DNA of 64,000 bases from Candidatus Poriferihabitans sp. (lineage in GTDB: Bacteria; Pseudomonadota; Gammaproteobacteria; Arenicellales; Poriferihabitantaceae): the NCBI GenBank assembly GCA_965220975.1, contig OZ244855.1, positions 1,390,730 through 1,454,729 of the forward strand. Reading direction: 5' to 3'. This document shows, piece by piece, positions 41,050 to 44,968 of this stretch. The notes beneath the pieces are model-generated. The model saw only the letters and a list, made by a program, of their open reading frames with translations, was not told where the DNA came from and ran no database searches. Made by a program: the position numbers and the translations under genes. Position 1 is the stretch's first letter, and every line of letters begins with the position of its first letter.

Positions 41050-41125
<76 letters not shown>

Positions 41126-41158: not shown

Positions 41159-42352
41159 CTACTGAAGGATTTTGGTAACGACGCCGGCTCCGACGGTTCG
41201 TCCGCCTTCGCGAATCGCGAACCGCAGACCCTCCTCCATGGCAATCGGAGCAATCAGCTCCGCCACCATGTGCACATTGTCGCCCGGCATCACCATCTCC
41301 ACACCCTCCGGCAAATCGCAGGCACCCGTCACATCCGTCGTGCGAAAATAGAACTGCGGACGATATCCCTGAAAAAAGGGCGTGTGACGACCACCCTCCT
41401 CCTTCGACAGAATATAGACCTCCGACTCAAACCGGGTGTGCGGAGTGATCGACTTCGGCTTCGCCAGCACCTGACCACGCTCCACCTCATCACGCTTGGT
41501 ACCACGCAACAACACACCAACATTGTCTCCAGCCTGACCCTCGTCCAGCAACTTGCGAAACATCTCGACACCCGTGCAAGTCGTCAAACCCGTATCACGA
41601 ATGCCCACAATCTCTATCTCCTGACCAACCCGGATCACACCCCGCTCAATCCGACCCGTCACCACCGTACCCCGACCCGAAATCGTGAACACATCCTCCA
41701 CCGGCATCAGAAAATCACCGTCCACCGACCTCTCCGGCTCCGGTATGTGACTGTCCAGCGCCTCCGCCAGACGCTGAATCGATCCCTCGCCCAAATCCGA
41801 ATCCTCCCCCTCCAGAGCCTTCAACGCACTGCCCACCACAATCGGCGTGTCGTCACCCGGAAATTCATACGTGTCCAGCAACTCCCGTATCTCCATCTCC
41901 ACCAGCTCCAGCAACTCCTCATCGTCAACCATGTCCGCCTTGTTCAAGTACACCACCATGTGCGGCACGCCTACCTGACGAGCCAGCAAAATGTGCTCGC
42001 GCGTCTGCGGCATCGGACCATCCGCCGCCGAACAAACCAGAATCGCACCATCCATCTGCGCCGCACCCGTGATCATGTTCTTCACATAGTCCGCATGACC
42101 CGGACAGTCCACATGCGCATAATGACGCAACTCCGTCTCGTACTCCACATGCGCCGTCGCAATCGTGATCCCTCGCTCACGCTCCTCCGGAGCATTGTCT
42201 ATCTCGTCAAACGCCTTCGCCTCCGTACCACCGTAACGCGCCGACAACACCCGCGTCATCGCCGCCGTCAAAGTCGTCTTGCCATGATCCACATGACCTA
42301 TCGTGCCTACATTCACATGCGGCTTCGTACGCTCAAATTTTTCTTTCGCCAT
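41159..42352 (-). CDS. tuf: Elongation factor Tu (tRNA-linked copy)
   Basis: Protein identical to 23250-24443; one synonymous nucleotide difference seen, plus a different stop codon. Confidence 0.99.
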
Positions 42353-42466: not shown

Positions 42467-42543
<77 letters not shown>

Positions 42544-42572: not shown

Positions 42573-42646
42573 TGGAGCGGGTGATGGGAATCGAACCCAT
42601 ATCATCAGCTTGGAAGGCTGAGGTTCTGCCTTTGAACTACACCCGC
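42573..42646 (-). tRNA. tRNA-Gly(UCC)
   Basis: 74 nt; TCAGC-CTTCCAA-GCTGA anticodon arm. Confidence 0.97.
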
Positions 42647-42738: not shown

Positions 42739-42823
42739 TGGTGGAGGGAGGAGGATTCGAACCTCCGAAGGCTGAGCCAACAGATTTACAGTCTGCCCCC
42801 TTTGACCGCTCGGGAATCCCTCC
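42739..42823 (-). tRNA. tRNA-Tyr(GUA)
   Basis: 85 nt with long variable arm; GCAGA-CTGTAAA-TCTGT anticodon arm. Confidence 0.97.
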
Positions 42824-42986: not shown

Positions 42987-43327
42987 TGGAGCCCGCAGAG
43001 GGATTCGAACCCCCGACCTGCTGATTCTTGCCCGCTATCGTTTTCACGACCCAGATAGATTCTCTGGTTTGGGGTCTGGACTTTCTCTTCACCATACCTC
43101 AAGACAAATGCATCTTGTGATGGCTTAGGTGGGCGGTGTAAAGTCTCTACACTCAATATCGAAACATCGATACTTAGCACGGGATTGCCATTCGTCTTGG
43201 CGCGGATCAATTTCATCAAGAAGAGTCAGGTTTCCCCGTTTTAGCCGCCTCCACTTGACCAGTTTCCTTGATCAAGGTGCAATTTTGATTTACAAATCAG
43301 CTGCTCTGCCAACTGAGCTATGCGGGC
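42987..43327 (-). tRNA. tRNA-Thr(UGU), intron-split (exon 1 43327-43292, exon 2 43026-42987)
   Basis: Joined exons give a 76-nt cloverleaf with GCUGA-UUUGUAA-UCAGC anticodon arm; canonical thrU position ahead of Tyr-Gly-Thr-tuf. Confidence 0.95.
43027..43291 (-). ncRNA. Group I intron (IC3-like), 265 nt, no ORF
   Basis: 5' exon ends in U and the intron ends in G. P1 UGU/GCA, P2 with GAAA loop, P3 GGCGG/CCGCC, P4 ACGGG/CCCGU, P7 GACU/AGUC, P9 UCGU-GAAA-ACGA. Core strings GUGUAGAGACU, CCCACCUAAG and UAUGGUGAAG are as I recall from the Azoarcus intron. Confidence 0.92.
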
Positions 43328-43666
43328 CATACCGGTTTAAGATGTGATTGCTCGGTACAATCACAAACTTGTTGTCATTTTATCCTGACAGCTACTGATT
43401 TTCAAACATTATTCATGTCTTTTTTAGGGAATTATATAGTTATTTAGTGCCTGCCAGAAAACCCCTGTTGTTCGCCGACGGCAGGAAAATTTTACTCGGA
43501 AACGGTCTCAGGATGGGACCATTTCGTCTATAAATTCATGAATTGTGCGGCGCACAATATGAATATTGTGCCAAACAGACGGGTTTTTTTCAAGCATAAA
43601 AACCTCCCAGACATAGCTCTCCAGTCCCAGCAAACCGGGAGGCCAAACGGATTTCAATTGGAGCCG

Positions 43667-44968
43667 CTAAGCGGCGAGGCGCAGGCGCTTCTTTTGCTTC
43701 CGGCGAAGCAGTAGACCCATCCGATGAATATTCAGAGTGAGTACCGACAAGGCTACGGTGCGGGCAAAACCATCCGCACCATGAGTACGAACCCGATCCA
43801 AACCCCGGTGCTCCAGATTGTCAATGGCCGATTCAACCGCCGGGTGATGGCGACGCTGAGCCACAAATACCTCTTCGCTCTCCCGTTGCCGGTCAGCCTG
43901 ACCAAGACCCCCTTTCTTCGGCAATCCATTGTAATCGAGCAACTCGTCAAGACGACGGTTGGTGACACTGTGAAAACCCCGATCAAAACTCACCCCACGC
44001 AGTTGTGGATAGGCCCGCTGGGTCGCTTCGACCATCGGCACCGCATAGTCTGCATCCGTACCTTGCCACATCACCTCATGATGCAGGATAAAACCATGCT
44101 GGTCCTCCAGAATACACACCGGAACACCGAACTCGACCGGCGTTCCAGACTTGCCCTTCGAAATCCAGCGAGTGTGAGGCTGGCAGATCGAAAACACCTT
44201 CTCTGACTGCGGGATCTTCTCGCCCTTGAGTAAACGACGGTCAACCAAATCCACATGTAGCCGAGCATAGTACAAATAATAATCGATCACTGCAACACAG
44301 GGTGGACGATCGAATTCCTCAACCAGAATGCGGAGCGTTGACTCCGCACGCTCGATGAATTCCTGACACCGGTTCAAATAGGTTTCAATCGGATCCGGTT
44401 TCGCCTGCGAGGTCTTGCGTACTCGATTGAACAGTTGCTTGACCGACCGGGTCAGGTGAGCTGACTGGTGCCAGCCTTTCAAATCATGGGCCTTGACCGC
44501 CTTCGCGGTCTCGCGAATCAGACCACGAATCGCATCCCGCAGTAGACTGACGTCGGTTGCGTAATGCACATCGGTTTCCACCACAAAGGAATCACAGCGC
44601 CCGAGCAAGGGCACGCCAGACTTTTTTCCAGCCACCTTGTGACCACTGTCTACCACCAGTGGATTGACCTCTGCCAACAGCTCCGGAGTCAGTAGCTCGA
44701 CATTATCGATGATCGTCTGAAGTGCATACTGGTCATGCTTCGAGAGACTGGAATGTCCCAAAAACAGGCGCACTGTCCGGTGTTCATTGATTAACTCAAT
44801 GTAGCCGATCATGGTCGCAACCAAGACCCTGCTTGAGCACTCCCATTACCAGAATCCGCCATGACTCCATGCCCGGACGACCGTTGTTTCGGTCCTTGCC
44901 GGGCAATATGTGCTGGTCCAGCAGGGCAAACAAGGCCTGGCGTGTATTCGGGTCCCGATACAGATGTT
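43667..44968 (-). pseudogene. ISNCY-type DDE transposase, frameshifted and 5'-truncated
   Basis: GRPGMESWRILVMG, CDSFVVETDVHY, SKGKSGTPVEFG, FDRGFHS, VESAIDNLEHRGL. An extra T near 44797 (LH-tga instead of LHEL) shifts the frame; the N-terminus is cut at ~44969 by the duplicated segment. Confidence 0.8.

Follow-up and report, generated by a model that had tools for sequence, protein, structure and literature searches.

Evidence for a small group I intron in the tRNA-Thr(UGU) gene of Candidatus Poriferihabitans sp. and for its place in a distinct clade of bacterial tRNA introns

In the tRNA genes of bacteria, group I introns were classically divided into the classes Leu.3Ug, Arg.5Ug, fMet.2Ug, and Ile2.5Ug, which have been expanded to 21 tRNA/site classes from 80,413 genomes (Williams 2020, bioRxiv 10.1101/2020.01.27.920355). 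The seed alignment of that study contains Rba53.Thr.5Ug, whose P1 'GGUA' corresponds to tRNA-Thr(GGU) with the intron at the 36/37 site, Mti5.Thr.3Ug, whose 'CUU/G' corresponds to tRNA-Thr(UGU) split at 34/35, and also Pgr210.Thr.2Ug. Thus, going by these seeds, a tRNA-Thr host, the 36/37 site in tRNA-Thr, and a tRNA-Thr(UGU) host are each already on record; the UGU anticodon at site 5 is not explicitly documented in the text and seed alignment of that study. No Thr host is listed in the review of Hausner 2014 (PMC3984707) or in the tRNAscan-SE 2.0 paper. Here, we analyze a tRNA-Thr(UGU) gene (thrU) in a 64,000-nucleotide (nt) stretch of contig OZ244855.1 from the sponge-associated gammaproteobacterium Candidatus Poriferihabitans sp. 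(the window, in whose positions all coordinates are given), and find strong support for its insert being a group I intron of the small bacterial tRNA type. A first-pass annotation, made from the sequence, had regarded this tRNA as a host not known for such introns. At the level of tRNA type and site, this claim largely fails, as tRNA-Thr introns are catalogued as Thr.5Ug, Thr.3Ug, and Thr.2Ug in the seeds above, and the window intron has the properties that define the Thr.5Ug class there (tRNA-Thr, intron after nt 36, U at position -1, terminal G). It represents a new, well-delimited member clade of an already catalogued kind.

The tRNA-Thr(UGU) gene occupies 42987-43327 on the minus strand, where exons of 36 and 40 nt are separated by an insert of 265 nt between U36 and A37, exactly as the first-pass annotation had it (a window coordinate equals 43328 minus the precursor position). 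Read along the minus strand from 43327 to 42987, the order is GCCCGCAUAGCUCAGUUGGCAGAGCAGCUGAUUUGU, the 265-nt insert, and AAUCAGCAGGUCGGGGGUUCGAAUCCCUCUGCGGGCUCCA. The 5' exon (43292-43327) carries tRNA nt 1-36, namely the acceptor strand, D arm, 5' anticodon stem, U33, and U34-G35-U36, and its 3' end reads ...CUGAUUUGU. The intron occupies 43027-43291, and the 3' exon (42987-43026) carries tRNA nt 37-76, with A37, the 3' anticodon stem, variable loop, T arm, acceptor strand, and an encoded CCA. Its sequence (AAUCAGC...GGGCUCCA) is identical in intronless alleles of relatives. When the exons are joined, ARAGORN recognizes a canonical 76-nt tRNA-Thr(tgt), and when introns are allowed in the genomic sequence, it calls tRNA-Thr(tgt) i(37,265). 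A repeated A lets the junction slide by 1-2 bases on sequence alone; 36/37 is the only placement in which a U precedes the 5' splice site and the insert closes with a G. As had been anticipated, the gene is reported neither by default ARAGORN nor by Rfam at the gathering score, though the neighboring tRNA-Tyr, tRNA-Gly, tRNA-Thr(GGU), and tRNA-Trp genes are.

In a local search of 521 nt, the full-length Rfam model RF00028 (Intron_gpI, positions 1-253) matched at 43062-43301, with E 3.9e-5. The genome-wide RF00028 search did not recover the Thr intron. Because Rfam is weak on this intron, we built our own covariance model, R1, from 12 Williams seed cores extending from the P3 5' strand to the P7 3' strand, with 26 nested pairs annotated (two each of Leu.3Ug and Arg.5Ug, and one each of fMet.2Ug, Met.2Ug, Arg.3Ug, Ile2.5Ug, Thr.5Ug, Thr.3Ug, Lys.4Ug, and Ser.3Ug); the training set holds no member of the Thr(UGU) clade described below. 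R1 produced a single match in the window, at 43078-43249 (-), with 69.6 bits, E 4.6e-15, and model positions 1-135 of 135. Across the 3.37-Mb genome it produced exactly four matches, each within a split tRNA gene. The resemblance of the intron to the group I family is far beyond chance. According to the text of Williams 2020, none of the 12 Rfam seeds (0/12) is bacterial, and a cut-off of 18-20 bits was used there for tRNA-embedded matches; this cut-off would have caught the present intron if metagenome-assembled genomes (MAGs) of this kind were in the January 2017 data set described in that text. Three short open reading frames (ORFs) overlapping the intron have no Pfam match, and thus the intron encodes no homing endonuclease, in agreement with the first-pass annotation.

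The paired regions P1 to P10 were checked base by base on the sequence (all on the minus strand). In the P1 hairpin (43278-43294), U34-G35-U36 and intron A1-A2 (43290-43294) face the internal guide UUGCA (43278-43282), with the U36.G48 wobble at the 5' splice site. For P10, guide nucleotides A45-U46-U47 (43281-43283) can pair with A37-A38-U39 of the 3' exon (43024-43026). P2 is a hairpin of 9 base pairs (bp) at 43254-43276 with a GAAA tetraloop, L2 (43263-43266). P3 is formed by GGCGG (43245-43249) and CCGCC (43132-43136). The P4-P6 domain (43151-43239), recovered by RF00028 and R1 as well as by the base-by-base check, contains P4 (ACGGGG/UCCCGU, 43234-43239 / 43179-43184), J4/5 (AAA, 43231-43233), J5/4 (CAA, 43185-43187), P5 with a variable extension (43229-43230 / 43188-43189), P6 (43177-43178 / 43151-43152), and a P6a hairpin (43155-43174). 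The guanosine-binding helix P7 pairs G(A)GACU with its bulged A (43142-43147) with AGUCC (43078-43082) and forms a pseudoknot with P3. P8 (43090-43131) has a variable tip and a canonical 11-nt GAAA-tetraloop receptor (CCUAAG, 43124-43129 / UAUGG, 43092-43096), and J8/7 (AAGAGAA, 43083-43089) provides a strand of the catalytic core. The P9 domain (43028-43074), supported by RNAalifold and covariation, has a closing helix (CCC/GGG, 43072-43074 / 43031-43033), a variable hairpin P9a (43051-43067), and a P9b hairpin (43037-43050) with a GAAA loop (43042-43045). The last intron base, at 43027, is the terminal G (omega-G, G301). Hence P3, P4, P7, and P8, all named in the first-pass annotation, are present together with P5 and P6, and so are the predicted guide pairing with its U.G wobble, the possible P10, the terminal G, and the GAAA loops on P2 and P9. 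By the features of subgroup IC3, the intron is compact (265 nt), carries GAAA in both L2 and L9b, and has a canonical P8 receptor; the P5 site is non-canonical and P9 carries an extra hairpin. We refer to the intron as IC3-like. The joining strands J3/4, J4/5, J6/7, and J8/7 align with those of the published seeds.

Searching 41 related genomes with the intron DNA revealed it in 34 of them. A global scan with the exon-guide pattern, applied to one genome per species in 185,579 species, yielded 61 true matches, all in MAGs of Gammaproteobacteria: Arenicellales, Ca. Poriferihabitaceae, Ca. Spongiihabitans, two Acidiferrobacterales, and one probably misbinned 'Parasphingorhabdus'. Every true match consists of a tRNA-Thr(UGU) with an insert of 234-407 nt at 36/37, followed by tRNA-Tyr, tRNA-Gly, and tRNA-Thr(GGU). 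Eight further matches (Clostridia, Nostoc, Bacteroidota, and Saccharibacteria) have no tRNA 5' half upstream and were discarded as chance or coding sequence. Among the 56 distinct introns, the U before the 5' splice site, the terminal G, and the guide-containing UUGCACC occur without exception (56/56 each). An A precedes UUGCACC in 47, giving a P10 of 3 bp, and P10 has 2 bp in the rest. All three exon-guide pairs and the U36.G wobble are invariant in the 32 homologs that were aligned (32/32), and the wobble is likewise kept in all 56 extracted introns (56/56). The 20-mer GAGUGUAGAGACUUUACACC from the P7 region is found in 51/56 homologs, GAAGAGAAAGUCCAGAC from the J8/7 region in 54/56, and the GAAA loop of P9b in 51/56; the L2 GAAA loop is invariant.

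The 20-mer GAGUGUAGAGACUUUACACC is clade-specific: among 400 evenly drawn other gammaproteobacterial genomes, it occurred in one (locus L113, G534:C76:39748-40967), a member of another family with a 216-nt intron at 36/37 of tRNA-Thr(UGU), a different anticodon stem, and no encoded CCA. Since this member lies outside the strict search pattern, the global scan undercounts the clade. The alphaproteobacterial MAG contig JBLHGU010000008.1 (L059), labelled Parasphingorhabdus sp., carries the same Thr(UGU)-intron-Tyr-Gly-Thr cluster; its intron groups with an Arenicellales sequence in the tree (95/96), so the contig is probably misbinned. At several loci (L027/L081, L038, L046, L073, L084, and L113), ARAGORN run with introns allowed reported tRNA-His(GTG) or tRNA-Tyr(GTA) with an intron at position 39. 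We rejected these calls as mis-parses of the Thr(UGU) gene, which arise because the anticodon-loop junction is ambiguous to ARAGORN. Automated surveys relying on such calls could mislabel the host tRNA.

Covariation was evaluated on an alignment of 32 sequences with a hand-drawn structure including the P3/P7 pseudoknot, in comparison with 500 shuffles; P6a, the P5 extension, and the P8 tip, which are not alignable column by column, were left out of the count. In the 32 homologs, 97.2% of cells are paired, and sliding the partners by 1-3 columns lowers this share to 36-42%. Changes on both sides are seen in 109 cells, versus 36 +/- 6 in the shuffles. None of the 500 shuffles attained the observed values for percentage paired, cells changed on both sides, further pair types, or covariation score, and 16 of them did so for the number of pairs that carry a both-side change. 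Both-side changes affect 7/9 pairs of P2, and compensatory changes affect 3/5 pairs of P9b. The middle pair of P3 varies from C-G to U-A (10 C-G, 17 U-A, and 5 U-G), the second pair of P8 from A-U to G-C, and the P3 of the intron in G534 shows a further compensatory change from G-C to A-U. P1, P4, the bases of P5 and P6, and P7 (100% paired and near-invariant) show no variation in these homologs and are thus uninformative on covariation; their invariance fits a catalytic core. All core helices are 100% paired across the homologs. For the 3' domain, RNAalifold applied to 44 sequences recovered the closing helix, the covarying variable hairpin, and the GAAA hairpin.

In the 243 genomes of the order Arenicellales, the intron-bearing junction was detected in 64 and an uninterrupted anticodon arm in 80. 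Only two genomes have both patterns, and the second, 'intronless' match in one of these (G001) proved not to be a tRNA, so that the alleles are nearly mutually exclusive. The survey of thrU loci in related genomes proposed in the first-pass annotation thus returned an intron at 36/37 in 56 distinct homologs and in 64/243 Arenicellales genomes. The intronless alleles that were fetched (G156 and G159 of genus g8, G018 of g12, and G009 of g3) lie in the same Thr-Tyr-Gly-Thr locus. The exons of G156 and G159 are the same as those of intron-bearing alleles of genus g8, and those of G018 and G009 differ from the window exons at two or three positions. Genus g8 itself is split into 4 intron-bearing and 4 intronless members. 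This pattern is that of an intron which would be old in Arenicellales and neighboring gammaproteobacteria, inherited mainly vertically, and precisely lost in some lines. The tRNA-Leu(UAA) intron of cyanobacteria is likewise old and mainly vertical, with occasional precise loss.

For a phylogeny (IQ-TREE; 217 shared columns), ten Thr(UGU) introns were combined with the four of this genome and with 17 Williams seeds. In this tree, the Thr(UGU) introns group as a separate clade (ultrafast bootstrap 96, SH-like approximate likelihood ratio test (SH-aLRT) 97). The opposite clade (94/95) contains Leu.3Ug, Arg.5Ug, Ile2.5Ug, fMet.2Ug, Thr.5Ug(GGU), and Thr.3Ug, along with the Arg(CCU) and Leu(UAA) introns of this genome. 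Cores of the Thr(UGU) clade are 69-79% identical to one another, and their identity to any other core does not exceed 58%. It is likely that all these tRNA introns go back to a very old common origin.

The genome consists of one contig and is 94% complete by marker genes. tRNA-Thr(GGU) and tRNA-Thr(CGU) genes are present, and no uninterrupted tRNA-Thr(UGU) gene was detected elsewhere in the contig, which bears out the suggestion that the split gene is the only UGU isoacceptor. The ACA codon is in use, at 10.4 per 1000 codons and 21% of Thr codons in 803 long ORFs. Under standard decoding rules, the GGU and CGU anticodons do not read ACA. Given a sole UGU isoacceptor and the use of ACA, splicing is probably essential, and the cell would depend on this ribozyme. 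RNA data were available as assembled contigs from four metatranscriptomes of one study and from three others, and the locus was found in all four metatranscriptomes of the one study. Two independent contigs, from the RNA runs X15 and X16, have their first base precisely at 43327, which is the 5' end of the mature tRNA, and continue across the full intron to 43024 or 43022; a third covers the entire region. The starts at 43327 indicate that the gene is transcribed and apparently 5'-processed. The contigs from X15 and X16 also break off 3-5 nt beyond the 3' splice site and do not cross the 3' exon. Possible causes are an artefact of coverage, a halt of reverse transcription within the 3' half of the tRNA, or an RNA species made up of 5' exon and intron.

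Taken together, it is very probable that thrU is a tRNA-Thr(UGU) gene interrupted at U36/A37 by a protein-free, 265-nt, IC3-like group I ribozyme, an old resident on which the cell probably depends. Gene structure, family homology, conservation with covariation, and transcription are direct observations. The splicing chemistry, drawn from the established chemistry of the family, the tertiary contacts, and essentiality are inferences, well founded for self-splicing and essentiality. In the precursor, the guide UUGCA would pair with the anticodon U-G-U to form P1, where the U36.G wobble would define the 5' splice site, and the core would fold from P3-P8 and P4-P6 around P7. The 11-nt receptor of P8 is predicted to accept the GAAA loop of L2, and P5 that of L9. 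A free guanosine bound in P7 would then attack after U36. The guide A-U-U would hold A37-A38-U39 of the 3' exon as P10, the terminal G301 would take the place of the guanosine in P7, and the 3'-OH of U36 would attack after G301. These steps would yield an uninterrupted anticodon loop and release the intron.

Several observations weigh against this reading. The RF00028 score of 27.7 bits is below the gathering score of 50, so that the covariance-model check proposed in the first-pass annotation succeeded with R1 and with the RF00028 E-value and fell short at the Rfam family threshold. The minimum free energy of the whole intron is only modestly better than that of shuffles (z -1.9). The P5 receptor (CCUGAC/GAAUGG) departs from the canonical motif, and the closing helix of P9 has in this genome an A.C as its outer pair, which is A-U in relatives. 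In addition, the spliced exon-exon junction of this organism, which the first-pass annotation had proposed to look for, was not seen in the assembled RNA contigs, where only the unspliced precursor (43327 to 43022/43024) appears. Standard RNA-seq rarely recovers mature tRNAs, so the presence of precursor says little about splicing efficiency, and the missing junction is absence of evidence. Joints of the 'skips 265/270' type were rejected as evidence for splicing, as they have foreign flanks and 2-4 mismatches and a DNA run also contains the joined form, at a depth of 155; they stem from intronless tRNA-Thr genes of other community members. The off-motif P5 receptor and the mismatched P9 pair, along with a precursor abundant enough to be assembled from three metatranscriptomes, also speak for a ribozyme that needs a host protein or RNA chaperone and is not strictly self-splicing under physiological conditions, and cofactor dependence is common among group I introns (Hausner 2014, PMC3984707). 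We nevertheless consider it unlikely: the intact core does not vary, one tetraloop-receptor pair has remained canonical, and the precursor in RNA-seq is little informative on efficiency. Efficient self-splicing is known for small IC3 tRNA introns, among them those of Azoarcus and Anabaena.

The first-pass annotation had further suggested that the intron moved between tRNAs sharing the U36-A37-A38 context, its guide having co-adapted. Such a recent jump, from tRNA-Arg(CCU) or tRNA-Ile(CAU) with a guide re-adapted to UGU, would account for the 36/37 site common to the Thr(UGU) intron, Arg.5Ug, and Ile2.5Ug, for a guide that matches the local anticodon in each of the genome's four introns, and for the 3' domain layout that these four share. 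It is at odds with the phylogeny, in which Arg.5Ug, Ile2.5Ug, Thr.5Ug(GGU), and the genome's own Arg(CCU) intron all fall in the clade opposite to the Thr(UGU) introns, with the low core identity between classes, with the spread of the Thr(UGU) clade over several families and at least two orders at an orthologous locus, and with the lack of a homing endonuclease. The suggestion is therefore unsupported, and we judge a recent jump to be improbable. Still harder to accept is a dead relic, with the split gene a pseudogene and ACA decoded otherwise, which we hold to be very improbable. Splicing is not directly evidenced in the RNA contigs, and EF-Tu contains no ACA codons, both of which speak for a relic; against it stand the invariant core and compensatory helix changes across 56 homologs, the lack of another UGU isoacceptor when GGU and CGU anticodons cannot read ACA, the 21% share of ACA among Thr codons in long ORFs, exons identical to functional intronless alleles, and a transcribed, apparently 5'-processed gene. 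Beyond the protein-free ribozyme that we favor, one might speculate, with little confidence, that a distinct and old IC3-like clade, not explicitly described so far, has become fixed in many sponge-associated Arenicellales, within their only tRNA-Thr(UGU) gene, and that its retention is not neutral, so that ribozyme activity would gate the decoding of the four A-ending or rare codons served by the split tRNAs of this genome. If so, decoding would depend on GTP, Mg2+, and temperature, amounting to a global RNA-level translation brake in a symbiont. That EF-Tu avoids ACA completely and that precursor RNA was assembled are both compatible with such gating and do not show it.

The split gene is the first of a tRNA/EF-Tu operon, thrU-tyrU-glyT-thrT-tuf, on the minus strand. 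It is followed by tRNA-Tyr(GUA) (42739-42823), tRNA-Gly(UCC) (42573-42646), and tRNA-Thr(GGU) (42468-42543), each called by ARAGORN and Rfam, by EF-Tu (41159-42352; Pfam GTP_EFTU with domains D2 and D3), and by tRNA-Trp (41050-41125; ARAGORN and Rfam). The Thr codons of the EF-Tu gene are 23 ACG, 4 ACC, 3 ACT, and 0 ACA, a strong preference for ACG and an avoidance of ACA, the codon read by the intron-bearing tRNA. A putative promoter (TTGAAA, 17 nt, TAAAAT; 43377-43405 (-)), found by a consensus scan with 10/12 matches, precedes the 5' end of the tRNA by about 45 nt. An ORF of 385 amino acids (43667-44824 (-)), situated just upstream of the operon, has a weak match to a DDE transposase (PF13751, E 0.0015), below the cut-off.

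Group I introns interrupt four tRNA genes of this genome: Thr(UGU), Arg(CCU) (36/37 site, 215 nt, RF00028 45.6 bits, R1 103.7 bits), Leu(UAA) (34/35 site, 212 nt, 49.5 and 111.3 bits, respectively), and Arg(UCU) (34/35 site, 290 nt, 30.9 and 45.5 bits). The three other split genes are located at G000:C1:1026778-1027069 (-), 2316171-2316469 (+), and 3108485-3108851 (+). All four introns are below the Rfam gathering score, and the four tRNAs are missing from the default tRNA scan. The codons they serve are Thr-ACA, Arg-AGG, Arg-AGA, and Leu-UUA. The genome is thus reported by annotation pipelines (default ARAGORN, Rfam at the gathering score, and, by design, tRNAscan-SE) as one without tRNA-Thr(UGU), tRNA-Arg(CCU), tRNA-Arg(UCU), and tRNA-Leu(UAA), and such missing calls could be misread as codon reassignment or genome incompleteness in MAGs of sponge symbionts. 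The present results do not change the understanding of how group I introns work or where they live. They add a well-sampled clade (56 sequences with many covariations) to the bacterial tRNA intron family, and the presence/absence series at one orthologous locus, which reaches down to the within-genus level, should be useful for studies of intron loss and small-ribozyme folding.

Compared with known systems, the window intron resembles the Rba53 seed of Thr.5Ug, as given in the Williams alignment, in its tRNA-Thr host, its position after nt 36, the U before the 5' splice site, the terminal G, the P1-P9 layout, and the GAAA loops on P2 and P9. It differs from that seed in anticodon and guide (UGU and UUGCA, versus GGU and UGCC), with a core identity of 50% and placement in the other clade. 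Mti5.Thr.3Ug, from the same alignment, shares the tRNA-Thr host with anticodon UGU and the intron family, but is split at U34/G35 rather than after U36 and has a core identity of 54%. The intron of Azoarcus pre-tRNA-Ile(CAU) (IC3; Ile2.5Ug, seed Aol6) has the same 36/37 site, likewise only three exon bases in P1, no P5abc extension, GAAA in L2 and L9, the P8 receptor CCUAAG/UAUGG, and near-identical J6/7-P7 (GUGUAGAGACU) and P8/J8/7 (CACCUAAG...UAUGGUGAAG...AGUCC) strands. At 55% core identity, the two differ in P3, where the window's GGCGG/CCGCC is opposite in strand composition, in J3/4-P4 (CUAAAACGGGG in the window versus UCAAAUUCGGCG in Azoarcus), and in P6 (GUGCUA versus GAGCCAAG). Moreover, a variable hairpin is added in P9 of the window intron, making it a three-way junction, and the P5 receptor is non-canonical. 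The tRNA-Arg(CCU) intron of Agrobacterium and other alphaproteobacteria (Arg.5Ug) also shares the 36/37 site and the family, but belongs to a different clade, with 51-53% core identity. The tRNA-Leu(UAA) intron of cyanobacteria and plastids (Leu.3Ug) differs in site (34/35) and host tRNA and has 57-58% core identity, and it shows the same presence/absence pattern as the window intron: it is ancient, mostly vertical, and ORF-less, with sporadic precise loss.

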